Source of the DNA: Octopus vulgaris
Lineage: Eukaryota
DNA length: 64,000 bases
Assembly: GCA_951406725.2 (NCBI GenBank)
Contig: OX597814.1
Location: 9,362,001-9,426,000, forward strand
Direction of reading: 5' to 3'
A program made the translations under genes and the position numbers. Positions 6,031 through 54,077 of the stretch are shown piece by piece. The notes below the pieces were generated by a model. That model worked only from the letters and a program-made list of their open reading frames with translations. It was not told the DNA's origin and made no database searches. Each line of letters starts with the position of its first letter. The first letter of the stretch is position 1.

Positions 6031-6167
6031 ACACCACATCATCAAGCCCACCCCTTCTGTCTTCACAACAGGAACCCTCTTCTGTGGAACCCAGAAGTAA
6101 TGTGATATCTCAAGAATATGATGACATCAAAATAAACCAAATAATTGATTCAATTTCTAATGCATCT
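6031..6167 (+). CDS. Multi-macrodomain (PARP9/14/15-like) gene, module 1 exon A (S/P-rich linker plus start of macrodomain)
   Basis: Acceptor ttcttttcag ends at 6030, donor gtgagt at 6168; phase 1 to 0; (D)TTSSSPPLLSSQQEPSSVEPRSNVISQEYDDIKINQIIDSISNAS; homologous to 17824-17942 and 45166-45302. Confidence 0.85.
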
Positions 6168-6444
6168 GTGAGTAAATAGATTCAAGTAACATAGATTTAA
6201 TTGTCATTTCATTTTCAAATGAGGAATCGTTAAAGTTAATTAAAACATTTTCTCAGTCAAACTCAAACATTTTATTTCCTTCACATCTGATATCTTGAGT
6301 ATATCGTTTGCTAATTTTAACAACCTCAAACTTACTACAGCCATTCTGTAGAGCTTTTCTTAACAACAATATCAACTGCAACAATGTATCTCTCTTCTCT
6401 CCATGGACTGTTCCTTAGTTGTTTACCATTAATTACTTTTGTAG

Positions 6445-6672
6445 GTTGATGTCATCGTTAACAGCACCAATAAAGAACTCCAGCTTCAAAAGGGTTCTTT
6501 CTCCAAATATATTCTCTTTGCTGCTGGTTCAGAGATACAAGATGAATGTAACCAGAAATATCCTCAAGGTATTTCTACATCTGAAATAGCCATCACTAAA
6601 GGATATAACCTCAAATGTAAGAATGTATTTCATCTGGCATTACCTCCCTGGGATGAAAATTCCTCTGATTCA
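6445..6672 (+). CDS. Module 1 exon B, macrodomain N-terminal half
   Basis: ttttgtag acceptor, gtaagt donor; 228 nt, phase 0-0; VDVIVNSTNKELQLQKGSFSKYILFAAGSEIQDECNQKYPQG...AITKGYNLKCKNVFHL, matching the macro-PARP DVIVNS and 'IT.G..L.CK.V.H' motifs. Confidence 0.93.
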
Positions 6673-7281
6673 GTAAGTATCAATCATATGATATTGATTT
6701 ATTGAAAGAGTTAATGTTTGAAGAGAACCTTATGCATGTTGTGTGAGAATCATAAAGCAAATGTCAGCATCCTGTTTAATATTTGTTCTTCCAAGTTATC
6801 ATTGGAAGGAAGCAGAAGATATCGATGAACAGGACACTTTTATATATAAATAGAAGGAAAAAGCCTCATGGCCTAACAACAGTTATGTGACTGATAAATA
6901 AGACTATATTAAAACATATTTCTCTGTTTTACTGTCTGTATTGGTGAGTTTTTCTCTGTCATGGCACGAGCACTAGAGAGGTTGTCATGTCCTCAACAAC
7001 ACTAAAGACTCCTCTTGGGTCTGCATTCTCTCTCTTCATTCACCAACCATTTTACACGGTGGATTGGGTCTGTTTTATTGTAGCAGCAACATGAGTGAGG
7101 TTGCCTTGTCCCTTGCAGGACTAAAGAGTGATAGGAATGACAGTTGTGTTTAGAAGTGGTAGGAGTGAGAGGAGTTGTGAGAGGAGGATATATTTATTAC
7201 AACTTAATGGTTTCTTCCTGTAATAAGAAAATAATTTAATAAAATGTTCATTATCAATTACTAAACAATTATTTTTTTTAG

Positions 7282-7506
7282 ATTCTGGCAAACTTGACTC
7301 AAATAATAACCACTTGTCTGGAAGCTGCTGAGAGAATGGGAACAAAAAGCCTTGCATTTCCTATATTAGGAGCTGGAACATTGAATTATCCCATTGAAAA
7401 CCTACCCAGAACTATGTATGAAGCCGTGAAAAACTACTCAAATCAAAATTCAAGCTGCATCAAAGATGTTTACTTTGTTTTTCCAAAACACACAGAGATA
7501 GTAAAG
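7282..7506 (+). CDS. Module 1 exon C, macrodomain C-terminal half
   Basis: tttttttag acceptor, gttggt donor; 225 nt, phase 0-0; CLEAAERMGTKSLAFPILGAGTLNYP matches the macrodomain S(I/L)AFPA(I/L)GTG motif. Confidence 0.93.
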
Positions 7507-7585
7507 GTTGGTTTGTTTATTTTCCATTTGTTGTTTTAAGTTGATATTTTTGGAATTTACAAAAAAAAAAATTCTACATTAAATA

Positions 7586-8005: not shown

Positions 8006-8029
8006 AATGAATAATAATGAAATTATTGT

Positions 8030-8895
8030 ATACAGTGCTCAGGTGCACCACAACTTGTCAAAAGTGCGTATAAAGCATCTGCAGTAATGTACAAATGTCT
8101 GGGAAGTGAACAGTGTATGAGTCAGATACATGCTCGCGTGTGTATGGAGGGGAGAAAGATCAGGTGTAGTGTTGGCAAATCTGAGGAAGCATGGAAGTTT
8201 TGAAGGATGCAGTGCTCCAACAACTAACAACTGATGCCGGCAGTTTGTTCCATGCTTCAGCAACTCTCAGCGTGAAAAAATGTTTCCGAAAGTCATGGAA
8301 GGAGCTGTGCTGTTTTCTGACTTTGTAAACATGTCCACGGGTGTTAGACAGGTGGAGTTTGAAAAGGTGCTCAGAGTTATTGTTTGTAAGATGGTTAATA
8401 ATTTTATGAGTGTCTACCAAGTCAGCTGCCAGACGTCGGAGTTTCAATGTATCCATGCCCAGGGAAGTAAGGCATTCAGAATATGGCAAATGCCTCATGG
8501 AGGGTATTCTCTTGGTTGCACGTCGCTGAACGGTTTCCAGACGATTAATATCCTGGGAAAGATAGGGGTTCCAGACCAGTGATGCAAATTCCAGTTGAGG
8601 CCACACCATAGCTATATAAAGCTGCAAATAGATAGCCGGAGAGTGGCTCACAAAGGACTTGGTGAGTGATGCCAAGACACCCTCAGCCTTCTTGGCAATT
8701 TTAGCAATGTGTTTTGTCCAACACAAATCACTGTCGACAATAATGCCCAGGTCACGTTCACAAGAAGACTTTTTGAGATTAGTGTTGTGGAGGGAGTAAG
8801 TAGACGCTGAGTTTTTCCTCCCAAAATGCATGGTGGTACATTTGTCCACAGCCAGCTTGAGTTGCCAGTCCATGATCCTCTGCTGTGTTTTATCC
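8030..8895 (-). mobile_element. CR1-type LINE, 5'-truncated 3' fragment
   Basis: ORF 8160..8873 with ERDLGIIVD, LEFASLVWNPY, LETVQRRATK, TRGH and FFTLRVAEAWNKLP motifs. Confidence 0.92.
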
Positions 8896-9608
8896 AGGAA
8901 ATAGAAACAAAAATATGGAATCCTTCTGTAAATTTATATATTGGTGTCTTAGAATTCTTCAGTTGGAATGTTGGAATCTTTGATGTGTCTCATGGCCCTG
9001 TCTACCATACTTTTAGGTTAGCTTGGTTTTCTTCAACTCTTCCATTCCATGATTTAATTCTTAGTAACTTGATATGGATTCAGTATAGCTACCTCCACCA
9101 CCACCACTACCTACCCACAACATCCTTCAACAATTCCATTTTGGTTACTGACCAACCAAAAATGTGTTAATAGCACCACCAGAACACTGATGGTTTTCTT
9201 TCATTTCTGTTCTTCAAAGTGGAACGCTTTGGAAACTCTTTCCACAATTCTTTACAGTTCTTCTCAAAGTTGGATGAATCAATTAAGGGGCTTCTATGCT
9301 GTGCCTTAACTTGCTAGTAATAACAGCCAAGTGTCTCTTAAATCACAGTCTGCTGTCGTCAAAACTGGCAGAGTTGTTAAGGTGTCAGATAGGAAACCTT
9401 CTAATCTTTGTTTCAGCCCTTGGCATTCTGAGTCCAAATCCTGCTGGTGCCATACTAACCTTTTATTCCTTCACAATTCATAAAAATGTCCGTCTTCTCT
9501 GTTGGATTCATAGAAGTAGAAGAATGACAGAAGATCTTCTGTGGTGTTCGTTTCAGTACTTGGCATTCTGATTTCAAATCCTGCCATGGCAATGCTGGAT
9601 TGTGAATG
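8896..9608 (+). repeat. Segmental duplicate of about 21317-22157 (C-D intron sequence)
   Basis: Direct alignment by eye; ORFs 9296..9571 and 21773..22123 translate nearly identically. Confidence 0.92.
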
Positions 9609-9614
9609 TGCGTG

Positions 9615-9620
<6 letters not shown>

Positions 9621-12324: not shown

Positions 12325-14630
12325 AGGCATGTCAGAGTGAGGGGCTCCCAAGGGCCATATGGGCCACATTTGTGTTGTCACAAGGGCTGCACTCGCTTCA
12401 ATTCCAATTGAAGTCATTTCATAAAAATTATTGCAGAATATTTTTCTTACTTAAACTTAGAAACATACTTTGGGTAAGTAATGAAGTACTTTAACCAAAA
12501 GAAAAAAAATGAAGCTTAAATAGGCAACATAGATGTGAATGCAACAGCAACAAATATATTGTACAAAATTTACAATAGTTCAAAATGAACATTTAGTTAC
12601 AACTTTTCAAACATTTTCAGTATTTTGTCGTGAGGCTTGACACCTTTTTGCTGAAAATTTTTGGTATGTCTGGCTGAAATGTCTGTGCAGTTCTGAGTTT
12701 GATCAGAGATAACAAGTGATAAAAGGCAGCGAGCTGGCAGAACCGTTAGCACACCGGGCGAAATGCGTAGCCGTATTTTGTCTGCCGTTACGCTCTGAGT
12801 TCAAATTCCGCCGAGGTCGACTTCGCCTTTCATCCTTTCGGGGTCGATAAATTAAGTACCAGTTACGCACTGGGGTCGATGTAATCGACTTAATCCGTTT
12901 GTCTGTCCTTGTTTGTCCTCTCTATGTTTAGCCCCTTGTGGGTAATAAAGAAACAGATAACAAGTGTTGATTGTCAGTCTTGTTTTCTGAGAAGTTTTTG
13001 TTGATTTCATGAAGGAAAATAACTGTTTACACACACAGGTAGAATGAAACATTGCCATAATCCTTGTGGTAAACTTTCTGAAGTCTTTAAAGTTTTCAGG
13101 AAGGTATGAAAAGAAACCAGTTATCCCCACTTCAAAATACTTTGATCTGAGTGAAGAATCTGACTGCATTTTGAATAGCTTCCTCTGCAGACTTTCTTTT
13201 GCCTTAGCAACATCAAAGGTGAATGGTGCTGAGAATAATGCAAACAGATGTTCAAAAGATGAGAGATCTTTCCTGAAATTCCAGGTGACTGTCATACTTA
13301 GCAAAGCTAAGTACAGACTCAGTATTAGCGCAGTTTTTCAGCTCTTTGCACTTAGGAAAATGGATTAAATTTTCATTTGACAACTGTGACTTCCATAAGC
13401 TTCATTTTCTAATGAAGCACTTGATGTCACCATACAACTGAGTGATGGGTTTGTTTTTACCTTGTAATTACAAATCGAGATTAGTTAATTGTGCAGTAAT
13501 GTCCACAGCAAAAGCCAGATCCTGGAATCACCTCTCATCTTTTGTTTCATCTGTTTTTGACCTTTCATCTCCAAAAACATAATTATTTCTTATTTCAACG
13601 AATGAAATATTTTCTGCACTTTGTGGCATGAAAACCAGCAGACTTCTGTGAAGAATGGAACATCAGTGAACTGATTATCCATATCTTTCAACAACTGACT
13701 GAATTGACAGTGGTTGAAAGCGTGGCCTCTGATATAGTTCACTGTCATTGTGACCAAACTAAGCGCAAGATCCAATTTTAAAATCTTTGAGCACAAATTT
13801 TGCTGATGAATAATGCAATGAAAATGTGCAACTAATGGATCCAGATGCAAATTTTTTATTTTTGTTTGTAACTTAGCAGAAACACATTATGTCTGCCAAC
13901 TATATTCACTGCACCATGAATAGATAAGTGTGCAAGTTTACTCAAATCAAAACCATAATCATACAGAACCCGTTCGACTTTCTCAAAGATGTTTTGGCTT
14001 GTTGTAGTATCATGCATGGAGATCAGTTCAATCAGTTCTTCATAAATATTAAATTCACTGTCACAGGCCCCGATGAAGACTGCGAGCTGTGCTATTCCAG
14101 TGATGTCAATGGTCTCATCAATAGCAATACAAAATGTTCAAATCTTGATGATGCAGCTTTCAACTATTGCTTCAGATCACCTGACATTTCATCAATCCAT
14201 TGAGCAACAGTGTTCCTGGTTAATGAGATATCTTTGAATAAGTATGCTTTCTCTGCACACACAATTTCAGACGTTTTTTACAAAGCATTGCTTTATGAAA
14301 TCTCCTTCACTGTAAGATTTCCCATTCTTGGCGATCATTTGGTGGAGTTTATAGCTTGCTGTAACGGAAGCGACATTCCTTTTCTGATTTTTCTGTGAAA
14401 CAGGTCTGTTGCTGTGTTGAGTTAGCCTTCAGTTCCTTGAGTCTTGAAACATGCATTGAACCACCTCCATATTTATCATAAGATCGATGATATGTTTCAT
14501 AATGTCTTTTCAAGTTGTACTCTTTCAGTGTATCTTTCCACTCACTGTTGTGCAAAAATACTATAATTCCCATTTTTCTTGAAACACTCGCCCTCCTCCA
14601 TTCAGTTTAAAGACAAAATAGATTTGTAAA
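12325..14630 (-). mobile_element. hAT transposase remnant (SPIN/GTF2IRD2-like)
   Basis: LKEYNLKRHYETYH, FHCIIHQQNLC, FFTEVCWFSCHK and MFHSTCVCKQLFSFMK fragments, in order on the - strand. Confidence 0.9.
12725..12953 (+). mobile_element. tRNA-derived SINE inserted in the hAT remnant
   Basis: ggcagcgagctggcaga...gagttcaaattcc B-box; central gcctttcatcctttcggggtcgataaattaagtaccag; flanking repeat agataacaagtg on both sides. Confidence 0.88.
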
Positions 14631-14899: not shown

Positions 14900-15756
14900 A
14901 ATTGTATAACTTTCTTCTTGCTTGTAATCAGATCCAAATCCAAAGATGCCAATGCATTCAGGGGAAAAGGGTGGCTGTCTGTGTGGGTCACAGGTGTTTT
15001 GCAATGGGCTGCATGTTTGACATACCCGTTCTAGCTCACGTCTACTGTTTACAGCAGTGCTTGGAAAGAAGGTGTGTAGTGTGTGGTTGTTGCATTGACC
15101 ATGAAGAAGAAGAGAATCTGCATCAAATTTTGTCAAAAGCTTCGTGATACCTGCTCAGAGACCTATGCAAAGTTTTCAAAAAGATTTCATCGTTCTCAAC
15201 ACAGTCAAGGAGATTTTGTGCAACTGAAATCCAAATGTCTTTTTGATCAACTGAAAGCAGTTTTGGCACAAACTTGGCAGACATGCGTCTCACACCCAAA
15301 TCTTCAGTGATAATCGACTGAACTGAACTGTAACTAATCTGCACATCCTCTGATAACTCAAGGATGGTGATTCAATGATTTCCCCTCACAGCTGCATGCA
15401 CATCTACAGCGTTTTACTCATTTATGTTGTCTGTGGGTCTCCCCGAACATTTGTCACTCTCGACATTTTACGGCAATTTTGGAAATGTCTGAACCACTTG
15501 TACACTTGTGTGCAGCTCATACACTCCTCTCCATACACTTTCTGCAATTTTGTGTGTGCCATTGAGCAGGTATCACCATGACAACTTTTTCTGTCATGGT
15601 CGATATTTCAATTTCATGTTACACATGTTATTTCCAAGCTCTACTGTAATCAACGGAAGTAAGCTAAGGTCAATCTGTGCCAAGCAGCTTCACTCTGCTT
15701 ACTTTAGCTTCCTTACTAAGGCAACAGTTCAAATACTTATTGATCAGACCTTGTAT
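14900..15756 (-). mobile_element. Rearranged mariner remnant
   Basis: ISYSSVQSIITEDLGVRRMSAKFVPKLL on the - strand; KRICIKFCQKL on the + strand; terminus tacaaggtctgatcaataagta at about 15735-15756. Confidence 0.8.
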
Positions 15757-15857: not shown

Positions 15858-15939
15858 AAATTTGATGAATATCTCCAAAATAAAGACGAAAATGAAGGAG
15901 TAATAAATAAACAGGAAAATGAAGGATTTCATTCAAAAG
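15858..15939 (+). CDS. Module 1 exon D (final helix and linker)
   Basis: ttttaacag acceptor, gtaaac donor; 82 nt, phase 0 to 1, exactly what is needed to join exon C1 to A2; KFDEYLQNKDENEGVINKQENEGFHSK; homologues at 40661 and 54023. Confidence 0.8.
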
Positions 15940-16494
15940 GTAAACAATTTGTTGTGAGGTGAACAATTTATGCAAGGTCTGAGCATGCCTCACACTCCAC
16001 TGAGTTGTGGCTTTGTCTGAAGTGGTTTTACGAGTTATTTATCTGAGTTTTGGCCATGGCATCATTACTGAAGGCCTGCTGAACTTTTCTGGATGCTTTG
16101 AGCTTGAGTGTCACCAAGCTTTTGGTAAAACTTGATGCAATATCTTTACTCAATACATTTGGTCATCTTGCATGAACACAAAGGTCTGTCCAGTGCACAC
16201 TACAAGTTTATACTCTAGGTTTAATGTCCAGGAGCAGTTGCAGTTGCACAGGAAAGGTGAAGTCACCGCTCACCCAAAGGGTTTTTCCCACATGGGAAGG
16301 AAAAATAAAGTCAGATACTTTTTGAGTGCAACTCATAAATGCATTGACATGAGTTTAACTGTTTGAGTGTTTGTCCCATCCTCTCCTCCCAAACCTCACT
16401 TTGCAGGTAATTACTTCTTGTTCAGGGATTTGGGGCAAGGGACATATTCTTTATAGGGTCCCTTCTCTAACTGCTTCCTTCTCATTTGTTCAGT

Positions 16495-17535
16495 TATTTT
16501 CACAGCTTCCACAAACCAGATGTGGAACTTGCTGACAGAAAGCTACTGCAACTTTTCCATACCAACCACTCTGATGAGCACAGTCTTAGATAATCACCTA
16601 ATTACCCAATATCAGGTACAAAACAAATTTGTAAGAATGGTTGAAATAGATTTATAATACTGAATAGTTTACGCTTAATATGCCCATTCCGTGGTGGGGA
16701 CACTGGCAATGGGTAGTGTCAGAGCTATGCCGTCGGGAACTTCGGTTCCTGGTAGTGCCACCCAAGGCAGATTGGTCTGACACTGAGTGGTATTAGGGCC
16801 ACAACCCGGCAGACGGGGCTCTGGTGAAAATCCTCGGAGTGTCTGCTTTGGTAACTGGCAGCTCCCCAGTCGTTCTGTCTCTGTGTCTGCGTACAATCTG
16901 TGGCAAACAGGATGTCTCCACATGTGGGATTGTTGGGGACCGCTTGTGAAATCCACATATCCCCACGAAACTTCTTCCATGAGTAGAAGAAGCCGACACA
17001 ACCCACCCAGGGTGAATGTCGCCACAAGTACAAGTAAGTAATATACCCACTCTGTTGAAAAATGTACGAGTGCGTGTTTTTCTGACTTACAGACTCACGG
17101 ACTGTATCATTATCCTCATCCTCATTTAATGTCCATCATTTACTCTGGCATGGGTTACACAGTTTGACAGGATCTGATGACCACCAGATCTGTTTTAGGC
17201 TCCACGCTCAGCTTTGGCATGGTTTCTATGGCTGGCTGGCTGGTTGCCCTTCATATTGCCAACCATTTTACAGTGTGCTTTTCTCATGGCACCAGCACTG
17301 GTGAGGTCACCAAGTATCTTGCAAAACAAAGCAAAAAATGGAAAAGGATAAAACCCCCCAATGGAATTGGGTTGGGGAAGAGCCTTGATGCCAGGGGTAG
17401 AAATTCTAAAGTTTGCCAGAGGGTCAAGCATAGTTGTCTGGATATAGGGGAGACTCATGATCTCCTCATATTTATGCAAGGGTGCATGACAGTATCTGGA
17501 GGGGAGAAAGATGGTGGTAATAGGGTTCCAGAGCA
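16495..17535 (+). repeat. Segmental duplicate of 798-1847
   Basis: As above. Confidence 0.95.
16690..17038 (+). mobile_element. Short RTE-derived retroposon, copy made by the segmental duplication
   Basis: Same flanks and the same two TSD mismatches as 991-1339. Confidence 0.75.
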
Positions 17536-17823
17536 CACTTTCTATAACTTAGTGGTTTATCAAAGGAGACTGATAGAATAAGTATCTGGCTTTAAAATAT
17601 TAATGTATTGGGGTCGATTCATTTGACTAAAAATTCTTCAAGGTGGTGCCCCAGCATGGCCACATTCGAATGACTGAAAGAAGTAAAAGATAAAAGATAT
17701 AACGGGGTTAATTCATTCAACTAAAAGCCTTCAAGGTGGTGCCCCAGCATGGCCACATTCGAATGACTGAAAGAAGTGAATGATACACACACACACACAC
17801 TGATATTTGTCTATTTTTTTCAG

Positions 17824-17942
17824 ACACTGCATCATCGAAAGCATCCCTTCCTGGTTCACAACAGGAACCCTCTTCTGTGGCATCTGGAGAAAATGCTCGC
17901 ATCAACATACAACTATTGATTGATTCAATTTCTAATGTATCT
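17824..17942 (+). CDS. Module 2 exon A
   Basis: tttttcag acceptor, gtgagt donor; 119 nt, phase 1 to 0; (D)TASSKASLPGSQQEPSSVASGENARINIQLLIDSISNVS; 18-nt in-frame deletion relative to A1/A3. Confidence 0.85.
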
Positions 17943-18214
17943 GTGAGTAAATAGATTCATGTAACTTATTTATATTTTCATGTTATTTCATTTCCAAATA
18001 AGGAATCATTACAGTTAATTAAAACATTTTCTCAGTCAAACTTATTTCCTTCACATCTGATATCTTGAGTATATCTTTTGCTAACTTTAACAACCTCAAA
18101 CTTACTACAGCCATTCTGTAGAGCCTTTCTTAACAACAATATCAACTGCAACAATGTATCTCTCTTCTCTCCATGGAATGTTCCTTAGCTGTTTATTATT
18201 AATTACTTTTGTAG

Positions 18215-18442
18215 GTTGATGTCATCGTTAACAGCACCAATAAAAACCTTGAGCTTGACAGTGGTGCTGTCTCCAAATCTATTCTTTTTGCTGCTGGTCC
18301 ACAGATACAAGATGAATGTAACCAGAAATATCCTCAAGGTATTTCTACATCTACAATAGCCATCACTAAAGGATATAACCTCAAATGTGAGAATGTATTT
18401 CATCTGGCATTACCTCCCTGGGATGAATATTCCTCTGATTTA
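18215..18442 (+). CDS. Module 2 exon B, macrodomain N-terminal half
   Basis: 228 nt, AG/GT, open; VDVIVNSTNKNLELDSGAVSKSILFAAGPQIQDEC... Confidence 0.93.
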
Positions 18443-18477
18443 GTAAGTATCAATCATATGATATTGATTTATTGGAA

Positions 18478-18688
18478 GGCGGTGGGCTGGCAGATATGTT
18501 AGGATGCTGGGCGAAATGCTTAGCAATATTTCATCTGTCTTTACATTCTGAGTTCAAATTCCACGGATGTCGACTCTGCCTTTCATCCTTTTGGGGTCAA
18601 TAAATTAAGTACCAGTTGTGTATTGGGGTCGATCTAATCGACTGGACCCCTCCTACAAAATTTCAGGCCTTGTGCCTAAAGTAAAAAG
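18478..18688 (+). mobile_element. tRNA-derived SINE in the module 2 B-C intron
   Basis: Same family as 12725; TSD gatattgatttattg(g/a)aa at 18460-18477 and 18689-18706; empty site in modules 1 and 3. Confidence 0.9.
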
Positions 18689-18793
18689 GATATTGATTTA
18701 TTGAAACAGTTAATAATTGAGAAGAACCTTATGCATGTTCATTATTTATATTATTACATTTGACGGATATTTGTCCTCATCTTATTTGTTGTT

Positions 18794-18839
18794 AACACAA
18801 CGTTTCAGCTGATATACCCTCCAGCCTTCATCAGGTGTC
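18794..18839 (-). ncRNA. Minimal hammerhead-like motif, inverted copy
   Basis: Reverse complement reads gacacctgatgaaggctggagggtatatcagctgaaacgttgtgtt. Confidence 0.65.
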
Positions 18840-19023
18840 TTGGGGAAATTTCAAACCTGGGTTCTCATTCCTAAAGTATTTTTCGAAGTTATTATTATTA
18901 TTACTATTCAGGTCACTACCTGGAATCAAACTTGGAATCTTGGGGTTAGTAGCCCGCACTCTCTATAGTGGTTAAAGTGTGGGCTACTAATCCCTAGATT
19001 CTGAGTTCAATTCTAGACAGTGA

Positions 19024-19064
<41 letters not shown>

Positions 19065-19110
19065 TCGAAAAATACCTTAGGAATGAGAACCCAGCTTCGA
19101 AATTTCCTAA

Positions 19111-19156
19111 GACACCTGATGAAGGCTGGAGGGTATATCAGTTGAAACGTTGTGTT
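19111..19156 (+). ncRNA. Minimal type I hammerhead ribozyme-like motif
   Basis: GACAC-CUGAUGA-A-GGCUG(gagggtatat)CAGUU-GAAAC-GUU-GUGUU: conserved core boxes, stem I GACAC/GUGUU, stem II, self-complementary AACGUU in place of stem III. Confidence 0.65.
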
Positions 19157-19640
19157 AGCAACAAACAAGATGAGGACAAATATCTGTCATATGTAAATAA
19201 TGTACATAATTCCTCATCTCTTAAATATAGAACTGTATCAGTTATATGACTGATAAATAAGACTATATTAAAACATATTTCTGTGTTTTACTGTCTGTAT
19301 TGGTGAGTTTTTCTCTGTCATGGCACGAGCACTAGAGAGGTTGTCATGTCCTCAACAACACTAAAGACTCCTCTTGGGTCTGCATTGTCTCTCTTCATTC
19401 ACCAACCATTTTACACGGTGGATGGGGTCTGTTTTATTGTAGCAGCATCATGAGTGAGGTTGCCTTGTCCCTTGCAGGACTAAAGAGTGATAGGAATGAC
19501 AGTTATGTTTAGAAGTGGTAGGAGTGAGAGGAGTTGTGAGAGGAGAATATATTTATTACAACTTAATGGTTTCTTCCTGTAATAAGGAAATAATTTAATA
19601 AAATGTTCATTATCAATTACTAAACAATTATTTTTTTTAG

Positions 19641-19868
19641 ATTCTGGCAAACTTGACTCAAATGATTACCATATGCTTACACACTGCGGAGAAAATGGGA
19701 GCAAAATGCTTGGCATTTCCTATAATAGGAGCTGGAAAATTGAAGTACCCCATAGAAAACCTACCTGGAATTATGTATGAAGCAGTCAAAAACTACTCAG
19801 ATCTAAATTCAAGCCAGATCAAAGTTGTAAACTTTGTGGTTTATCCTCAAGACACAGAAATAGTAAAG
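19641..19868 (+). CDS. Module 2 exon C, macrodomain C-terminal half
   Basis: 228 nt, AG/GT, open; ILANLTQMITICLHTAEKMGAKCLAFPIIGAGKLKYP...VVNFVVYPQDTEIVK. Confidence 0.93.
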
Positions 19869-30268: not shown

Positions 30269-30490
30269 ACTGATTATCTCCTTTGACTATTGCAGTTTCC
30301 ATCTGATTGTCTCCCTTTGACTTCTGCAGTTTCCATCTGATTGTCTCCCTTTGACTTCTGCAGTTTCCATCTGATTGTCTCCCTTTGACTTCTGCAGTTT
30401 CCATCTGATTGTCTCCCTTTGACTTCTGCAGTTTCCATCTGATTCTCTCCTTTGACTTCTGCAATTTTTAACTGATTCTCTCCCTTGTCT
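30269..30490. repeat. 34-bp minisatellite, about 6.5 copies
   Basis: Unit tctgattgtctccctttgacttctgcagtttcca at 30302, 30336, 30370, 30404 and 30438, plus degenerate flanking copies. Confidence 0.95.
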
Positions 30491-43009: not shown

Positions 43010-44160
43010 CTGCAACAATTCACTGCTACCACCATTCTTCCAGTCCTTCCAAGCCTGTTTCTTTTCCCTAATGGCCCTTTTAACTACATTGTTCCACCAC
43101 TAAATTACCTTGGGTCGAGAGGGGACTTTGCACCATCCACAGATCTGTTTCGTGGTCCTCAACATGTTGTCCTGTTGGAACCTCCAGTTGTCTTCAACAT
43201 CATGTGATGCTATGTCCCCCTCTATTTTGTCAAAAGCTTTGACTAATATGTCTCTAAATCTCTATCTATTCACAAGATCCTTAAGCTTCCAGACCCTTCT
43301 TGTCCATGCTGGTCATCTCCTGGGCATCCATTTAGCCCTGATCCTGAAGTCACTAACTACTAATCTATGTTGTGAGGTACATTCTTGACATGGGAACATT
43401 TTGGCATTTATAGGTAGCCATCTTTCCCATTTCCTAGTGAGGGTGTAATCATTTTGACTAGTGTGTCCACCAGATCAGTAGGTGAATAGATGACTGGCAG
43501 GTTTCCTGAAGTTATCATTACAAACCAGAGGATCATTTGCATCGTAGAACTCCAGCAGCCTGGTTCCCTCCTCATTACAGGAACCAAAACCGTAGCATCA
43601 GTGTATGCCATGGAAGCCCCTTGCATGTTGTCCAACTTGTCCATTGAAGTTGCCAGCCACAAAGAGAAGGTCCCTGTTGTTCATCCACAAGGTAATCTGC
43701 AAGAGGAAGGGTGTCATAAAATTAGTCTTTCTGTTCATCTGGTAGCCCTGGCTGAGGAGCATAAGCTGAGATAATGGTTGCTAATCCATGTTGCAGCACT
43801 AATCTAATCCTTAGTATTCTATCACAGACTCTGACTACCTCGATTACCTTATCAACCCATTTCTCTGCAAGAAGTATACCCACGCCCCCGACCCCATGTG
43901 TGTTCCCTACCCAGAAAATCTTACACCTATGTTCTTTGCCTGTGAGGAACCTAGCAGAACCTCCTCTCCACCTTACTTCTTGGATGCAGCACAAATCTAC
44001 ATGTCTCTGCTCGAGCATTTCAACAATCTCACCAGACCTATCTGTCAGTGTGCCAACCCTATGGATGTGGGAGGTGTGGGCCTGAGAAACCCTGGGATGG
44101 GGGACAGCAGTATCATGTACCTGAAAAGAAAGCTCGCATTTGGTTGAACTCATAAACATA
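43010..44160 (-). mobile_element. RTE LINE APE endonuclease region
   Basis: VGTLTDRSGEIVEMLEQRHVDLCCIQEVRWRG...GVGILLAEKWVDKV...ISAYAPQPG. Confidence 0.92.
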
Positions 44161-45165
44161 CATTAGCCTTCACCCTTCATACACTACACCATCATTTTAT
44201 GTGCTACATAATCACTACATTACATAGGAGATAAACCTAAGTAGGGACGGGAGAGCATTAAGCCTTTGGAAATGTTCAGGGGAAAGACATCCGATAGAGG
44301 TCTGAGAATAGAGACTTCTGTGAAACGGCAAACACTCTGGCTGCTGGTGTGGAATAATAATAATAATAATAATAATAATGAGATAGAATTGGACATTTGC
44401 ATTCTTAACTAGAGCTATAAGCAACAGTTTTCAGTCAGCCAAACTATGACAAAATTAAATGAATGAATGGCTGAATGGCAATAATAAATGAGTGTAAGAG
44501 AAAGGGAGAGCTGGATTGAGCATAGGGATCTTAAGTTTTTTTCTCGAAACATACAGCTTGGAAGACTATGCTGACATACATAATGAAATAATAAAGTAAT
44601 CATAATTTGCACTGTAAAAACAGGTTTTAGATGTGTGCTAGGTTGGAAATCAAAGTTGCTCGGCAAGAGAGATCAATACTACGAGAGATCAGTACTAGTC
44701 TTACAAAGAGTAAGTCCTGTAGCTGATTTGTTCAACTAGATGTGGTGTTCTAGCATGGCTTCAGTGAAATGACTGAAACAAATAAAAGAATATAGATACA
44801 TGTATAAAAAGCACCATTCGAGTGTGGTCGATGCTACTACCAACTGACTGGCTCACGTGCCAGTGACACATAAAAAGTACTATTCTAGCATGGTCAGTGC
44901 CAGTGCTGCCTGATTGACCCACATGCCAGTGGCACACAAAATGCGCCCACAACACTCATGGAGTGGTTGGTGTTAGGAAGGGCATCCAGCTGTAAAAACC
45001 TTGCCAGATCAGATTGGAACCTGGTACAGCCTCCTGGCTTGCCAGTCCTCAGTGAAACCATCCAACCCATGCCCGCATGGAAAGCAGGCATTAAACAATT
45101 ATCATCATGATGATATGTATACATAACATACAACATACACCTTGATATTTGTTTATTTTTTTCAG

Positions 45166-45302
45166 ACACTGCATCACCAAACCCATCCCTTCCTGGTCCA
45201 CAACAGAAAGCAGCCCCTATGACACCCAGAACTAATGTGGCATCCGGAGAAAATGCTGGCATTGAAATAAACCTAATGACTGATTCAATTTCTAATGCAT
45301 CT
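45166..45302 (+). CDS. Module 3 exon A
   Basis: tttttcag acceptor, gtgagt donor; 137 nt, phase 1 to 0; (D)TASPNPSLPGPQQKAAPMTPRTNVASGENAGIEINLMTDSISNAS. Confidence 0.85.
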
Positions 45303-45583
45303 GTGAGTAAATAGATTCACTTAACATATTTGTATTTAATTGTTATTTCATTTGCAAATGAGGAATCATTACAGTTAATTAAAACATTTTCTCAATCAAA
45401 CTCAAACATTTTATTTCCTTCACATCTGATATCTTGAATATATCTTTTGCGAACTTTAACAACCTCAAACTTACTACAGCCATTCTGTAGAGCCTTTCTT
45501 AACAACAATATCAACTGCAACAATGTATCTCTCTTCTCTCCGCGGAATGTTCCTTAGTTGTTTACCATTAATTACTTTTGTAG

Positions 45584-45811
45584 GTTGATGTCATCATTAA
45601 CAGCACCAATAAAATCCTCCAGCTTAATGATGGTTCTATCTCCAAATTTATTCTCAATGCTGCTGGTCCACAGATACAAGCTGAATGTAACCAGAAATAT
45701 CCTCAAGGTATTTCTACATCAGAAATTGCCATCACTAAAGGATATAACCTCAACTGTGAGAATGTATTTCATCTGGCATTACCTCCCTGGGATGAAAATT
45801 CCTCTGATTTA
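45584..45811 (+). CDS. Module 3 exon B, macrodomain N-terminal half
   Basis: 228 nt, AG/GT, open; VDVIINSTNKILQLNDGSISKFILNAAGPQIQAEC... Confidence 0.93.
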
Positions 45812-46410
45812 GTAAGTATCAATCATATGATATTGATTTATTGAAACAGTTAATGTTTGAAGAGAACCTTATGCATGTTGTGTGAGAATCATAAAGCAAA
45901 TGTCAGCATCCTGTTTAATATTTGTTCTTCCAAGTTATCGTTGGAAGGAAGCAGAAGATATCGATGAACAGGACACTTTTATATATAAATAGAAGGAAAA
46001 AAGCCTCATGGCCTAACAACAGTTATGTGACTGATAAATAAGACTATATTAAAACATATTTCTCTGTTTTACTGTCTGTATTGGTGAGTTTTTCTCTGTC
46101 ATGGCACGAGCACTAGAGAGGTTGTCATGTCCTCAACAACACTAAAGACTCCTCTTGGGTCTGCATTGTCTCTCTTCATTCACCAACCATTTTACACGGT
46201 GGATGGGGGTCTGACTTATTGTAGCAGCAACATGAGTGAGGTTACCTTGTCCCTTGCAGGACTAAAGAGTGATAGGAATGACAGTTGTGTTTAGAAGTGG
46301 TAGGTGTGAGAGGAGGATATATTTATTATAACTTAATGGTTTCTTCCTGTAATAAGAAAATAATTTAATAAAATGTTCATTATCAATTACTAAACAATTA
46401 TTTTTTTTAG

Positions 46411-46638
46411 ATTCTGGCAAACTTGACTCAAATAATAACCACTTGTCTGGAAAATGCTGAGAGAATGGGAGCAAAGAGCCTTGCATTTCCTATAATAGGA
46501 TCTGGAGTACTGAAGTACCCCATTGAAAAACTACCTAGAACTATGTATGAAGCAGTGAAAAGCTACTCAAATCTAAATTCAAACCAGATCAAAGTTGTAA
46601 ACTTCGTTGTTTTTCCTCCAGACAAAGAAATAGCAAAG
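46411..46638 (+). CDS. Module 3 exon C, macrodomain C-terminal half
   Basis: 228 nt, AG/GT, open; CLENAERMGAKSLAFPIIGSGVLKYP...VVNFVVFPPDKEIAK. Confidence 0.93.
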
Positions 46639-47884: not shown

Positions 47885-48946
47885 ATTGATGGCAAAAACA
47901 TTAGGAGACAAATTAAGCAAAGTTTTGAATCAAGATTTTGAGATTGTAAATTTTATAAAAACAAGACTAGTAAAGTGATGTTTATTCAAGTAGTTTTGTA
48001 TTGATGTGGATTCACAAAACAGACACCTGCTTTTGCACAGAGAGGTGGCTTTCAAAAGGGAAAGCACTTGATCATGTATATGAGTTACAAGAGCTACTCA
48101 AGTTTTTTGAAGAAATGGAACAAAACCACTTTTGTGAGCTCCTTCGATGTAAATGTTGGATTAGCAGATTAGTGTATTTGGCTAATATATTTCAGCACCT
48201 CAGTATTTTGAATACTAGCATGCAAGGAAATGAAGAAAACATTTTGATATCTACTGATAAAATGAAAGCATTTCAGAAAAAAACTACTTATCTGGAAGAA
48301 AAGTGCTACTAAGGGTAATCTGGAAATGTTTCCTTTGATAAGTAGAACTTGCATAAATGACATCTTTCCTTTAATACTTGAAAATTTCACAAATTTGGAA
48401 GATAAATTAAATTATTATTTTCCATCACTTAACACTGAACAATATGCTTGGATTTGAAATCCATTCATTGAAATTTCAGATGATGCTTGTTTAACATTAA
48501 CCAAAGAAGATTAGCAGTTATATCCACCAATGGTGGATTGAAGATTAAATATAAAGAATCTAGTCTTGAAAAATTTTGGATTTCAATCAGAGAAGAATAC
48601 CAGTCAATATCCTGAAAAGCTTTAGCCATTTTACTGCAATTTTCAACATCATATTTATTCGAATTAGGATTTTCCATTCTCACCAACATCAAGTGCAAAA
48701 AGAGAACAAATCTTCAGTCTATTGACAAGGAAAAGAGAGTTTGTTTATCATACATACGTCCCAACATTGAAGAAATTGCTAAGACATGCTAGGCTTATAC
48801 TTCACAATAGTGCAAAACAGATGAGGAATAATGGTAGATACCCTTGTTTTCAGTTATTTCTTTTGCATTATACTTCTTAGTATTTTGTGTGTAGTGTGCC
48901 CACAATTTTTTGTGTGCCACGGCTTCTAAAAGTTTAATAACCACTG
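47885..48946 (+). mobile_element. hAT (Charlie/Buster, ZBED5-like) transposase 3' remnant
   Basis: TERWLSKGKAL...LVYLANIFQHLSILNTSMQG; C-terminal ILLQFSTSYL.ELGFS; terminus aaagtttaataaccactg. Confidence 0.88.
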
Positions 48947-50879
48947 GCTTATATATTTTTGCATATAATTCTTTTATTATTATTATTATGGTTGTTATGT
49001 ATGATATCATTTCATCCTGGTTTTAGCACTTCAGCATGGCACAACTTGAGATTTTAAAACTAGTTTATATAAAGTTATTTCAAAACTAAAGTTAAAGATG
49101 ATCAATTTTTTGTCTTCTAATAATAATGGAAAAAAGAAGGGAAATAGAGGGACAGGGAGAAATAAAGAGAGAAAAACCCTCTTATTTCATTTTGAAATAC
49201 ATTGCATTTATTTTTTTCCCTTTATTTATACATAGCTCTAATATTAATTTGCCTTGTATACTAGTCCTTTATATAGTGACATTTCTCGTCCTTTCTACAG
49301 GCAAAATAGAAACCCTTGTCTTTTTTCCAGGCGCAGATTTGGAATTTCTGGCTGCATTTTCTTTTTGCTTTGCAGCTGGACTGGCACCTGTGCAGGTGGC
49401 ATGTAAAAAATGCCATTTGAGCATGGCTGTTGCCAGTACCGCCTAACTGGCCCTCGTGCCGGTGGCACGTAAAAGCATCCAGCTGTAGAAACTCTGCCAG
49501 ATCAGATTGGAGCCTGGTGCAGCCATCTGGTCCGCCAGTCCTCAGTCAAATCATCCAACCCTGCTTTCAGTTGTGTTTGTTTGTCTGTGGACAAGATATC
49601 ACGAGAATCGCTGAATGGATCCGGATAAAACTTTCAGGGATGTTTGGCACCATGGCTAGCACAAACTAATCTGGTACCAGACAAGGATTCTGCATTATGT
49701 TTTCTCTTTTTTTTTTTTACTTAATTTTTGAAAGCGAAGGGTCCATTTTTAGTATTTTCGTTTGTGAGAGCAGTCGAGTTTATTTCAGATATTCTCATTT
49801 CAAAAATCATCTCTGACTAATCGTTGAGAGGACATTGGTGTTGCCTTGGCACTCTCTGATTGCTTTTGTTTTTATTTCATCTCACCATGATATTTTTTTT
49901 ATGTTTATGCATCAGATCTCTTGATGGATGTGTAGATAGATATATATGGATGTGTAGATTGACTTTATATATTCACTCTCTGTATATATATATGCATATG
50001 CGTATGTATATCATCATCATCATCGTTTAACGTCTGCTTTCCATGCTGGCATGGGTTGGACAATTTGACTGAGGACTGGCGGACCAGATGGCTGCACCAG
50101 GCTCCAATCTGATCTGGCAGAGTTCCTACAGCTGGATGCTTTAACGTGCCACCGGCACGAGGTGCCAGTTAGGCGGTACTGGCAACGGCCATGCTCAAAT
50201 GGCATTTTTTACATGCCACCTGCACAGGTGCCAGTCCAGCTGCACTGGCAACAACCTCACTCGAATATTTTTTCAGGTGCCACTGGCACAAGTGCCAATA
50301 AGGCAGTGCTGGTAATGATCATGCTTGAATGGTGCTTTTCACGTGCCACCAGCACAAGAGCCAGTCAGCTGCCCTGGCAATGATCATGCTCAGAAGGTGC
50401 TCTTAGTGCTCCACTAGTACCCCAGTTGAACCGTCCAACCCATGCTAGCATGGAAAGCGGACGTTAAATGATGATGATGATGATGATGATGATAGAATAC
50501 TTAAGTTCAGGCTAGTTTTGCAGAATTGTATAGCTACAATTATATTTGCCTACACCTCACAAGTGGGCCTACCAAATGTACAGAAGGACCACTTTTATGA
50601 TATTTTTCTGCAGGCTACTTCAAAGATGAGTTACAAAGATCTCGCCTTAGCAAACATAGTACCAGTTATGCAATGGGGTCAATGTAATCGACTTAATCCC
50701 TTTGTGTGTCCTTGTTTGTCCACTCTATGTTTTGCCCCTTGTGGGTAGTAAAGAAATATATATATATAGCAGAGTATTGTAGATCGCTTGAAGCGTTGTG
50801 TATTGTTTATGAAATATAAAGTGTCTTGAATGGCGCAACAATGCAGAGTGGACTATAATAACTAATTATAATTTAATTA

Positions 50880-51640
50880 TCCATAGTCTGATATAATATT
50901 TTGGGATACAAAAATTCTTTCTTCAGATATCGCTAGAAATTGATCTGATCAAGTCACTACTATAATCGGTTCTCCAATGGTTACTGAATTTTTTTTTTTT
51001 TGGAAGTGTCTCTGCAGTGGTCTCATGAAGCTCCTTCTGGAGTTCCTCATGGGAAGTGCATGAGGACGGCTATGTCTCAAGTGTGTTGGCATATCTGCAG
51101 CGGTGCTTCTAAGTTATGTATTATACGTGCAATCATGAGCATGTTACCAGAAATGAACTTACTCGCATCCAGATGTAGCTAAATAATATATTCTTTGCTA
51201 ATTTCCAGCCTGTTGTTAATTTGGGGTGCTAGTCTTTCTTTGAAAATAGCTTCCTTAATTCTTAAATTACCCAAATTTCTTTCATTGGCCTCAGTTGTGA
51301 CTGTTATGCTTTTGCCGGTATTCCGGCATCTGTCTAGATGTTTTCTGAAAAAGGAGGCTCTCGTGTTCAGATGTTCTTTGATGTGGACGTGTAACAGTCT
51401 TGTTGTGCTACCCACATAGAACTTGTTGCATCTGTTGCATTGTATTCTATACACAACATTTAGCCATTGGCATAAATCTGTGTCATGGACGGGGCAGTTA
51501 GCTAGTGTGCATTGATTGCTGTCCCTTGCTCATTTCTTTGCAAGGTGTCCTCTCAGAGAGGGGCCGGAGTGGGCTAGCTGTATGTCTAATCCTTCTCTTC
51601 TTATGGTTCTTCAGGTGGCTGTAGTTATCCTCTCACTGTA
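50880..51640 (-). mobile_element. Penelope-like element 3' remnant (GIY-YIG) with a degenerate hammerhead
   Basis: VYRIQCNRCNKFYVGSTTRLLHVHIKEH...IKEAIF...PQIN; downstream gatat-ctgaaga...aaatatt-atatc at 50931-50890. Confidence 0.85.
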
Positions 51641-52084
51641 GTTATCCAGTTGAAAATTCTGGGCATCCTGTTAGCAAATGAAGTGCGTAATGGTGATTAA
51701 ATAATATCAATAAATATTCCAAATGTCTGTTTTGTTATATATATGTGTAAAGTAATGTAAAGTCTTGTGTAAAAAGGGTAAAGACCCCCCCATCCTTCGG
51801 TCATGAATGACCATGGATTGCACCTAGAAAGCTTCCCTCCAAAGCAGAAGTCTAGGCAAGGTTGTTTTGTGGGAGAGCAGCCAGTTGCCTATGCATACCA
51901 GTTTCTCTTTTCCATACCATGCCCAAGAGAAAAGACTGATACAGGTTGGCACCAGTGATGCTGCAACTCATTTCTACTGCTGAGTGACTGGAACAATGTG
52001 AAATAAAGTGTCTTTCTCAAGAACACTATACAGGAATCAAACTCGCTACCTTATGATTGTGTGTCTGATGCTGTAACCACTGAG

Positions 52085-53533
52085 CAAGGTGTACAACCAA
52101 AATTGTCCACATTTTAGAGTCAGCTTTGAACCTTTGTATCTCAGGAATGCTTAAAGATAACTTAATGAAACTATCAGAGGTTTTTCCAATGCTATTGGAC
52201 TCTACTTTGAGTAAGAAAAATGTTAATTACTCACAAAACTTACCAGAAGTATCGTTATGAAGTTGATTATGGACGAAAATGACATTTTCATGAATAATTA
52301 ACCATAGCTTTGGATGGAGATCTCATAAAGGATTGGAATAAATTTTAAATGGAAGCTTAAAATTTTATTTCAAAGTGCCTGAGAAAATTCTAACCAAAAT
52401 TCTATCTTTTAGGCATCAAGAGTTTCTCCTCTTTTGGCAATGCCTTCCTCAACCCACTTCCTGACCATACCACAAGCTTTCTTAATGAATTCTTCATCAA
52501 TGTCTTCCTCCTACGTCCTACATCATAGGGTTTTTGAGGGTTTGAAGGTTACTGTGGGGCTTCTCACAAGCTTTTCTAACCAGTTCATTCTAGATACTGA
52601 AGTCTAAAGGGTTAAAATCAGGTGATGAAAGGGGTCAAGTGTTCCTATCCCCAAAATTTTTGTACCATTGCATTTGTGTGAAAAGGAGCTTCATCTTGCT
52701 GGAATGTAAATTTGAAGTCCTTAATGATTTGGGGTTTCCCTTGTTTCTTGCTTCTTGATTCACAAAGAATCCAGGTCTTTACATCTTTCAAAACCTGAAC
52801 ATAACAAACTCCTATCAGTCTCTCAACCTTATCAAACATGATCAGTGACATCTTCTTACCATCAAAGGCTGTACAGGCGAAAATCATCACCTTGGCAGAG
52901 TTTGTGCACCTGAAAATAACTCCAGGATTGTTTCACTTTGTTCAAGATCCTCTCCAACCTTCTAACATTTTGTTCTGGAGTAACAAGATACCTCATAGGT
53001 CTCACATACGATTTCATTTTCAAGTCCCTTATCACTGCTCTTTAAACTGTCATAGCTGAAACTCCTCTCTCATATGCTAAGCATCTTTTGGATTGAGTTG
53101 GATCTGTTCTGATTGATCTCTTCAGCTCCAGATTGAAATGATGAGCCCTCTTGTGGATATGACCTCCAGATCCAGTTTTTTCCTTCCACTATCCCCACTT
53201 TCTCAAACTTATTAACAATTCTCTTGATGGCTCTTGAATGGACATTGAAGATAGAAGCCAGAGAATGAATGTTGGTACCATTACTTAAGAGCTGGATGAT
53301 CTTAGCCCTTTCAACATTGATCAGTAAGGAAGACATGGTGAGGTTGGCACAAACGATTTCAGTCTGTTCTAGCTAAGTATCTCAATGGATATTTCACTGA
53401 TTCTTACAAAAACTTGTGTCAATATGGCCAGACATCTTATTTGGAAAACATGGGAAATTGCAAATCGATTAGTTTATTGGTTTGGGGAAGTTTTAAGAAT
53501 TTGTGAGTGTAACAGTTTTGCTGATACACCCTG
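52085..53533 (-). mobile_element. Tc1/mariner element, probably maT/DD37D type, decayed
   Basis: N-terminal HTH ORF 53070..53336; TFQQDEAPFHT then SSPDFNPLDFS; imperfect TIRs caaggtgtacaaccaaaattgt / acagttttgctgatacaccctg. Confidence 0.8.
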
Positions 53534-54022
53534 TATATAGACTATTGTGAATGTCTTGTATTTATATACTCTACTTTGTATGCGTAGATGGATGTAAGCA
53601 AGCTGTATATAAACTGAGCGTCATATAAACACTTTCTGTATACAATATGTGTTGGGGACAGGAAAAGATTGTTTGGCTGGACCCGTTCCTTTTCTTCTTT
53701 CTCCTTTTATCTATACCCACAGTGTTGGGTACACATCTGCAGATATACTCTGTAGGACAGTATATATAGCATTGAAGTAAAGCACTGTTGACATACCAGT
53801 AATTCACTGAGATTTACTCAAAGCCAGTCTGTTTCAACAGAAATGTTCTTCCTTTGTTTTAATCAGTTTTGAAAATAATGAAGAATTAAGTAAAATCGGT
53901 TTGTCATTATTAAGCTGATGTTTGGACACAATATGGAATCTTGACTAATTTTTTACTGTTACATAGAAAATCAATTATGTTTTTGATTGAGTGATGATAA
54001 ATTATTTGTTTGTTTCTAACAG

Positions 54023-54077
54023 AAATTTAATGAATATTTCCAAGAAATTCTGGCAAATGGTTCTGCTGCATAATCAG
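54023..54077 (+). CDS. Module 3 exon D, with in-frame stop TAA at 54071-54073
   Basis: tttctaacag acceptor; KFNEYFQEILANGSAA*S, then G|gtaaat donor in phase 1 as in D1/D2. Confidence 0.7.

Follow-up and report, generated by a model that had tools for sequence, protein, structure and literature searches.

Does a 64,000-nucleotide stretch of Octopus vulgaris DNA (hereafter the window) hold one gene of repeated macrodomains, and if so, what would its product do and why are some parts of the repeats so much more alike than others? A first-pass annotation of the window had proposed that 12 short exons splice in frame, over about 645 codons, into three macrodomains, each encoded by a phase-symmetric four-exon cassette termed A-B-C-D. 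We followed up this proposal by comparing the exons, introns, and predicted protein modules with related octopod sequences.

Gene anatomy

The exon joins were predicted from splice signals together with two gene models, O. vulgaris CAI9714785.1 and O. sinensis XP_036364520.1. The features are listed below by their positions in the window.

797 to 1847, forward strand: part of a D-A intron, homologous to the intron between D1 and A2; 95.4% identity over 1054 nt to 16494 to 17535
5695 to 5976, forward strand: deleted-module relic; A-B intron followed by 23 nt from the start of a B exon (5954 to 5976)
6031 to 6167, forward strand: exon A1; linker and first strand of macrodomain 1, phase 1 to 0; 45/45 against the models of both species
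6168 to 6444 and 6673 to 7281, forward strand: A-B and B-C introns, homogenized, with counterparts at 17943 to 19640 and 45303 to 46410; likely exchange substrate
6445 to 6672, forward strand: exon B1; N-terminal macrodomain half with loop 1; Pfam Macro E 1.1e-10; 76/76 against the models of both species
7282 to 7506, forward strand: exon C1; C-terminal macrodomain half carrying loop 2; C2 and C3 are each one codon longer
15858 to 15939, forward strand: exon D1; end of the last helix and linker; phase 0 to 1
17824 to 17942, forward strand: exon A2; A1, A3, and the O. sinensis orthologue are each longer by 18 nt
18215 to 18442, forward strand: exon B2; Pfam Macro E 2.4e-11; 72/76 against the O. 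sinensis orthologue, differences clustered
19641 to 19868, forward strand: exon C2
40661 to 40706, forward strand: exon D2
45166 to 45302, forward strand: exon A3; 45/45 against the O. sinensis orthologue and against the paralogue pair P0017/P0050
45584 to 45811, forward strand: exon B3; 72/76 against P0017/P0050; unlike the exon after A3 in the O. sinensis orthologue
46411 to 46638, forward strand: exon C3; 76/76 against O. sinensis P0017
54023 to 54077, forward strand: exon D3; terminal-type D exon with an in-frame TAA at 54071 to 54073 and an intact donor; 16/16 against the P0017 C terminus

An AG acceptor and a GT donor flank all 12 exons, whose summed length is 1941 nt, and the phase pattern 1-0-0-0-1 recurs in each of the three modules, as the proposed cassette demands. 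The exons are real, but the frame is not open to its end, as the TAA in D3 is codon 645 of 646 and is preceded by 644 open codons. The predicted splice agrees with CAI9714785.1 at 552/552 residues, and nine exons in a row correspond to the PARP-bearing O. sinensis model at 95 to 100%. Exons A1 through A3 are joined in the same order by the two independent gene models, which upholds the assignment of the modules to one gene; past A3, the O. vulgaris and O. sinensis genes go on with different modules. The matching gene models also predict one more full module (module 0) upstream of the window. Overall, the splice signals and models support a single gene in which a phase-symmetric cassette encodes macrodomains in tandem.

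No N-terminal RRM/KH region or hydrolase macrodomain 1 is seen in either matching model, and the 5′ end of the gene lies outside the window. A hidden-exon search of the introns, the upstream region, and the region after D3 recovered nothing beyond the ends of two gene models, and no transcript-derived octopus ORF was recognized in sequence searches. Uncollapsed haplotypes were considered as a source of the modules and rejected: the modules are 78 to 80% identical to one another, yet modules 1 and 2 are each matched at 95 to 100% in O. sinensis.

The terminal stop and the PARP domain

This locus belongs to a large PARP14-like family, and its PARP14-like descent is indicated by the nine-exon match and by the PARP14 RRM domains and PARP domains that paralogues carry. 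In macroPARPs (PARP9/14/15), the same polypeptide also carries a PARP catalytic domain, and none was found for this gene within the window. The first-pass suggestion to look for nearby RRM, KH, WWE, or PARP exons was followed in the 3′ stretch from 54078 to 64000, and neither a PARP exon nor an exon of any other domain of the fetched octopod proteins was detected in these 9.9 kb. Because D3 carries an in-frame stop and no PARP exon follows in this interval, the gene product is predicted to be a PARP-less chain of macrodomains. Exons C3 and D3 are both missing from the O. vulgaris gene model. The anatomy described here corrects the 3′ end of a public model. The same stop terminates O. sinensis XP_029635758.1 (16/16 residues), and a search among proteins of 242 to 772 aa turned up no P0017 isoform of greater length.

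A PARP-bearing enzyme would nevertheless be produced if D3 were bypassed, either by a downstream D exon or through an in-frame GT at 54060 that would preserve phase 1 and drop the stop, or if module 3 belonged to a neighboring gene or were mis-joined. Read-through of the stop by RNA editing is a further conceivable route. The O. sinensis orthologue model XP_036364520.1 comprises five modules followed by PARP, A3 is common to several loci, and, with introns as long as 20.8 kb in this gene, an exon-free stretch of 9.9 kb does not settle the matter. However, the GT at 54060 is far from consensus whereas the donor at 54078 is good, and the empty 3′ stretch and the O. sinensis model that ends at the same stop both speak for termination in D3. 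We therefore regard a PARP-bearing product as unlikely.

The stop could also mark a decaying, truncated duplicate, the array having arisen neutrally from an unstable cluster and serving no reader function. The stop is premature by comparison with the homologous exons, of which 28 of 29 read through its position; a relic module lies at 5695 to 5976; and half-modules and fragments occur among the paralogue models. Moreover, dN/dS significantly above 1 was not obtained for exon B (2.43, 1.96, and 0.88; Fisher p 0.16–0.70) or exon C (0.37–0.64), with three DNA copies only. Decay is nonetheless difficult to reconcile with 644 open codons, the low exon C ratios, the many columns, loop-1 Gly among them, that are invariant across 41 octopus modules, and the recurrence of the stop at another O. 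sinensis locus. In addition, the exons have stayed distinct despite homogenized introns, which drift alone does not predict. Decay without function is quite improbable.

Macrodomain type and pocket residues

Pfam Macro (PF01661) matched 6/6 of the B and C exons, five of them over the curated cut-off, and 0/4 of the A and D pieces scanned (A1 to A3 and D1); the matching model P0003 scored 234.6 bits to Macro in four stretches. The best solved relative by sequence is macrodomain 2 of human PARP14 (ARTD8/BAL2; 3q71), with 85.7 bits versus 47 for macrodomain 1. The predicted structure of module 2 (pLDDT 91.8) aligned to 3q71 in Foldseek with a TM of 0.92 and an rmsd of 1.6 Å, and with lower TM to 3q6z (0.83) and 4abk (0.78). 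The modeled fold places the modules with the PARP14 macrodomain-2 reader rather than with macrodomain 1 or 3. Position-class HMMs for macrodomains 1, 2, and 3, derived from 89 proteins with three domains, assigned all 66 sequences, even the outgroups, to class 2 and were discarded.

According to PMC10221186, macrodomain hydrolases are recognized by Asn or Ser plus Gly in loop 1 and an aromatic residue in loop 2. Across the 41 modules, loop 1 has Asn in 39, Ser in one, and Ala in one, with Gly in all 41. In loop 2, where a hydrophobic residue should be followed by the aromatic, the aromatic is absent in 41/41, its position being occupied by Leu (30) or Met (11). Octopus macrodomain-1 copies retain the hydrolase motifs (6/6 examined). 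The invariant loop-1 Gly appears, from chain offsets, to align with the G1044 position of PARP14. The canonical adenine-binding Asp is Ser in the octopus modules, and binding of ADP-ribose is therefore not assured; human macrodomain 2 is likewise without this Asp. That the modules act as ADP-ribosyl hydrolases, or erasers, is very unlikely: they do keep the loop-1 Asn, where human macrodomain 2 has Pro, and the Gly, but the required loop-2 aromatic is absent from every module and the nearest structure, macrodomain 2, is inactive. The modules are likely non-catalytic ADP-ribose readers.

Intron homogeneity and module age

The A-B and B-C introns (270–600 nt) are 93 to 99% identical between modules, versus 83 to 92% for exons B and C. 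C-D introns 1 and 2 have collinear patches in common (five matches, 86–94%), what C-D intron 3 shares is confined to short pieces (about 85 nt where it begins, a single 105-nt match, and dispersed repeats), and D-A intron 2 can be aligned with other introns through dispersed repeats only. The claim that introns were duplicated along with the exons is well borne out only for the A-B and B-C introns.

Two upstream traces had been taken to signal further modules. Both exist, and the relic at 5695 to 5976 does mark a module: it is fused to the CA-rich intron end preceding A1, and its A-B intron is closest to that of module 2 (98.4%, compared with 93.0% for module 1 and 94.9% for module 3). No A-exon remnant was found upstream of it. 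The segment at 797 to 1847, which contains a dispersed repeat at 990 to 1341, is intronic and is placed between module 0 and module 1; it need not mark a module beyond the one in the gene models.

The array had also been called young, a view that read age from intron identity and that the exons do not support. In the three module pairs, exon mismatches numbered 58/453, 51/453, and 55/456 (11–13%), whereas intron mismatches numbered 26/670, 22/667, and 27/662 (3–4%; exon versus intron p 3e-8 to 5e-7). Synonymous divergence in exon C is 0.21 to 0.41, against 1.5 to 2.6% in the adjacent intron, and modules 1 and 2 have orthologues in O. sinensis (about 2.5 My). Because the exons are more diverged than the short introns, conversion is indicated instead of recent birth, and the data point to modules that are not simply young, their intron likeness probably stemming from conversion. 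Intron-restricted gene conversion is known from MHC and plant NLR immune genes. That functional constraint such as splicing control, and not conversion, keeps the introns alike is hardly credible, even with 93 to 99% identity over 270 to 600 nt and O. sinensis isoform models that differ by whole repeat units, since the homogeneity extends into the adjoining ends of the exons and is interrupted at variable codons, and informative sites change partner along the module. The proposal that the array grows and shrinks fared better: octopus models hold zero to five full modules between paralogues and species, and the relic records a lost module.

Probable exon exchange and variable sites

Exons B and C have had independent histories, as judged by distances among the 41 octopus modules: those of exon B and exon C are uncorrelated (Mantel r = -0.01, p = 0.53), and the within-exon controls of odd versus even columns gave 0.29 for B and 0.39 for C (both p = 0.0005). 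The two halves of exon B correlate weakly (0.13, p = 0.06). Apparent shuffling could also arise from chimeric gene models or from mis-assembly within the near-identical introns.

The most variable columns across the modules are 11 and 16 in loop 1 and 109 in loop 2. Codons 11 to 25 hold 16 of the 28 variable bases of exon B (p 1.4e-5, for a window picked after inspection). Variable loop sites may merely be surface-exposed. Median identity is 75.6% for PARP domains (16 paralogues) and 76.9% for modules (near-copies removed); the PARP domains being as diverged, the modules do not evolve faster overall.

Discussion

We think it probable that the window holds the 3′ part of a PARP14-like gene whose macrodomain module is present three times, with a fourth predicted upstream, and whose stop-ended, PARP-less product consists of non-catalytic ADP-ribose readers, the exons likely being exchanged via near-identical introns. 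Gene conversion and unequal crossover, acting within the short A-B and B-C introns, would homogenize these introns and alter module number without a frame shift. Such exchange would pair differing loop-1 exons (B) with differing loop-2 exons (C). The protein may bind mono-ADP-ribosylated targets multivalently and act in trans, as an adaptor or a competitor, on marks written by PARP-bearing paralogues. Its role is probably in antimicrobial defense, an immune function borrowed by analogy from vertebrate PARP14.

Human PARP14 macrodomain 2 and the octopus modules share the fold, the best sequence match, a non-hydrolase loop 2, and the Gly. However, the human domain is one of three anciently diverged macrodomains, whereas the octopus array repeats one type; the octopus modules also keep the loop-1 Asn and have no PARP after them. 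PARP9 (a catalytically inactive regulator of PARP14), PARP15, and the invertebrate PARP14-like clusters of lancelet and sponges are similar in their partial and tandem PARP14 duplication. In the accessible parts of PMC13224862 and PMC10221186, the duplications described are whole-gene or ancient partial ones, and arrays of one macrodomain type, exon-level exchange, and stop-terminated macro-only paralogues do not appear. In bovine CEACAM32 (PMC7042247), conversion affects the introns and spares the domain exons, as is probable here; the octopus case would differ in that exchange runs between modules within and across genes, and each exchanged exon bears one loop of a single pocket.

Octopus paralogues with the same module (for example, XP_036364520.1, XP_029633854.1, XP_029635758.1, and CAI9714784.1) are also among the closest known systems, and many of them retain the PARP domain. 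The window gene amounts to modules 0 to 2 of XP_036364520.1 plus a stop-bearing terminal module of the XP_029635758.1 type. In the seven paralogue PARP domains examined, the His and Tyr motifs are kept and the third triad position apparently is not Glu. A quick tree separated three Argonauta modules from 59 Octopus modules (SH-aLRT 91 and 90), with 22 of 63 inner branches unresolved. Near-identical module pairs occur in P0001 (98%), P0050 (97%), P0018 (96%), and Argonauta (96%), and near-identical macrodomain pairs in 12 of 135 other multi-macrodomain proteins; by this measure, recent macrodomain duplication recurs in other animals. A "PARP14-like isoform X2" protein is reported from O. vulgaris skin mucus (PMC11431876). 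No octopus or invertebrate macrodomain array was found in open-licence PMC and bioRxiv literature, searched mainly by listings; the gene is a variant of the known macroPARP family, with an array of one macrodomain type not found in print in that literature.

A broader reading, possible although doubtful, is that octopods maintain a combinatorial repertoire of ADP-ribose sensors. Loops 1 and 2 would be selected to be diverse and reassorted via homogenized introns, module number would change by in-frame crossover and module skipping, and the stop-bearing terminal module would be swapped between loci so that writer enzymes become reader-only decoys; the recurrent duplication of macrodomain 2 in other molluscs, an echinoderm, and lamprey would then represent less pronounced versions of this strategy.

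In the literature, as far as its accessible text goes, the three-macrodomain layout of PARP14 is treated as ancient and stable. In the octopus gene, a single reader domain has become several, apparently with exchange at the exon level, and PARP-less versions are predicted in two species, O. vulgaris and O. sinensis. If true, the family would amount to a naturally occurring library of dozens of such readers that vary at the pocket mouth. It would open to direct test the target specificity of macrodomain readers and the idea that ADP-ribosylation is a front in an arms race in animals that lack both interferon and adaptive immunity. It would then represent a variable immune-sensor repertoire in an invertebrate.

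Gene structure and identity

Self-comparison of the window revealed a 1.6-kb core in three copies with two traces upstream, which bears out the repeated modules and upstream traces of the first-pass annotation. Each module comprises four exons (A to D), and all 12 exons delimited, with a summed length of 1941 nt, have AG/GT ends and follow the phase order 1-0-0-0-1 in each module. While the in-frame splicing proposed earlier stands in these ends, phases, and 644 open codons, the proposal missed the in-frame TAA at 54071-54073 in the last exon, D3 (54023-54077). A weak GT lies at 54060 inside D3, and its use would retain phase 1 and drop the stop. The Pfam search recommended at that stage matched Macro with exons B and C in 6/6 cases, five of them over the cut-off. 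The structure predicted for module 2 takes its first strand from exon A, and its last helix extends into exon D, suggesting that a single domain is built by all four exons.

The locus is a real, partly annotated PARP14-derived gene. The spliced product is identical over 552 residues to the Octopus vulgaris model CAI9714785.1 (P0003), which has one further module upstream of the window and departs from the array after B3 (45584-45811). The terminal exon of this model, at 55440-55505, bypasses C3 and D3 and is probably a prediction artefact. From A1 through A3 (45166-45302), the window agrees at 95-100% per exon with XP_036364520.1 (P0001) of O. sinensis; beyond A3, that model has two different modules and then a PARP domain. 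Exons B3, C3, and D3 of the window match another paralogue pair, XP_029635758.1 of O. sinensis and CAI9716701.1 of O. vulgaris: B3 at 72/76, C3 at 76/76 and 75/76, respectively, and D3 at 16/16 against XP_029635758.1, which terminates at the same stop. As the stop in D3 also ends XP_029635758.1, it is not an error of one assembly. Terminal-type D exons occur in 29 of the proteins examined (isoforms counted), 28 of which read through and one of which stops. The genes of the two species part ways at the A3-B3 intron or close to it, either by a true crossover or through a mistake of assembly or gene modelling in a near-identical intron.

Between B2 (18215-18442) and residues 493-568 of P0001, four residue differences are packed within 19 codons; three carry module 1's residues, and the cluster looks like a short conversion tract. 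Positions 55671-55742 exactly match the last 24 residues of CAI9744149.1 (P0008, O. vulgaris), which sits on a different chromosome (34.6 Mb) and also has C2-, D2-, and A3-like exons, so the 3' portion of the array may have been copied as a segment, or both loci may carry a common repeat.

The first-pass annotation advised inspecting the flanks for PARP and WWE exons; in the 9.9 kb searched after D3, no PARP, WWE, or other paralogue exons were found. The gene descends from PARP14, but falls outside the macroPARPs (PARP9/14/15) because its frame stops before any PARP domain.

Repeats in the window, with element classes as we presume them from motifs:
58141-61419 (minus strand), 8160-8933, 23458-25446, 26829-27945, 37561-39866, and 43014-44162: remnants of broken LINE-type retrotransposons, whose frames resemble endonuclease and reverse transcriptase
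12852-14606, 15123-15371, 20704-21000, 28969-29479, 35838-36471, 47974-48312, and 52645-53372: fragments like hAT-type and Tc1/mariner transposase, a Helitron-like helicase, and LTR-element integrase
62774-63070: minisatellite, 42 nt x 7.1 (96%)
30257-30486: minisatellite, 34 nt x 6.8 (92%)
17610-17785: minisatellite, 93 nt x 1.9
49371-49561 and 50053-50244: 192-nt inverted repeat (96.9%) within the C3-D3 intron, belonging to a ~300-nt dispersed family with at least 10 copies in the window

Putative reader-type pockets

The nearest solved relative of the modules, both by sequence and by fold, is human PARP14 macrodomain 2 (TM of the predicted model = 0.92, versus 0.83 and 0.78 for macrodomains 1 and 3). 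One study characterizes hydrolases by Asn/Ser and Gly in loop 1 and a hydrophobic-aromatic pair in loop 2 (PMC10221186). We compared 41 distinct Octopus-type modules, namely 59 rows less three partial or chimeric and 15 near-copies (at least 95%). Loop 1, on exon B, is hydrolase-like, with Asn in 39/41 and Gly in 41/41; the aromatic position of loop 2, on exon C, is Leu or Met in 41/41, unlike hydrolases. The canonical adenine Asp is replaced by Ser, and separate macrodomain-1 copies in octopus paralogues keep the hydrolase motifs (6/6 examined). Human macrodomain 2 is described as a reader without hydrolase activity (PMC10499325). The missing aromatic and the proximity to this non-hydrolase domain thus point to reader function; the modules are putative ADP-ribose readers, although the Ser at the canonical adenine Asp position makes binding less assured.

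Variability among the modules is highest at columns 11 and 16 (loop 1) and 109 (loop 2), though these sites may simply be surface-exposed. Both loops presumably lie beside the distal ribose, at the point of exit of the modified target from the pocket. In exon B, 16/28 variable bases fall within codons 11-25, a window chosen post hoc. Arguing against positive selection at these sites, dN/dS was not significantly above 1 for exons B and C of the three DNA copies, and the PARP domains of 16 paralogues have diverged as much as the modules.

Probable conversion, shuffling, and turnover of modules

The first-pass annotation proposed a young array that grows or shrinks. The array is not simply young: modules 1 and 2 already existed before O. 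vulgaris and O. sinensis separated, about 2.5 My ago (PMC10700109). Between modules, 11-13% of sites differ in exons B and C, against 3-4% in the introns next to them (p = 3e-8 to 5e-7); exon C shows a synonymous divergence of 0.21-0.41, and likeness in the long C-D introns is limited to patches. Such a picture is consistent with older modules in which conversion is homogenizing the short introns while the exons remain distinct, a pattern like that reported for bovine CEACAM32 (PMC7042247).

Exons B and C are incongruent: their distances over 41 modules do not correlate (r = -0.01, p = 0.53), whereas interleaved columns correlate within B (0.29) and within C (0.39), each at p = 0.0005. The two halves of C are also correlated (0.35, p = 0.001), and those of B weakly so (0.13, p = 0.06). 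We infer conversion and crossover between modules.

The proposed growth and shrinkage fared better, as module turnover appears to continue in octopods. Near-identical module pairs lie inside single proteins (98%, 97%, and 96% in Octopus; 96% in Argonauta), the intron of the relic module (5695-5976) is 98.4% like that of module 2, and 55 gene models hold 0-5 full modules each. In a quick tree, Argonauta modules cluster separately from all Octopus modules. Five of the seven isoform models of one O. sinensis gene depart from the longest one in a repeat unit. Differences among its isoforms X1-X7 (P0002, P0004-P0007, P0048, and P0049) are whole or half units, one module lacking exon C with the frame kept; combinatorial splicing or mis-mapped junctions are possible.

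Macrodomain duplication in other animals

Among the best 150 of 6994 matches, 139 proteins were new and 135 had at least two macrodomains. The best internal pair had a median identity of 35% in these 135, exceeding 60% in 12 and reaching at least 84% in six; such high-identity pairs imply that recent macrodomain duplication is recurrent. The 10 proteins with the highest-ranking internal pairs come from abalone, two snails, scallop, oyster, freshwater mussel, sea star, brittle star, lamprey, and cod, and a macrodomain-2-like domain is duplicated in six of them, as judged by eye. Ten proteins from molluscs, echinoderms, lamprey, and cod (P0153, P0145, P0138, P0142, P0139, P0180, P0149, P0144, P0200, and P0186) have internal duplications of 69-95% identity, and a simple pattern search found no PARP motif in 6/10. 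Octopods have the most extensive macrodomain duplication among the proteins compared. Tandem PARP14-like genes are known in invertebrates (PMC13224862); no published account of such macrodomain arrays was found in the open-licence PMC and bioRxiv literature. The octopus product would act like a chain of macrodomain-2 readers, and such a PARP-less chain may have a trans-acting immune role.
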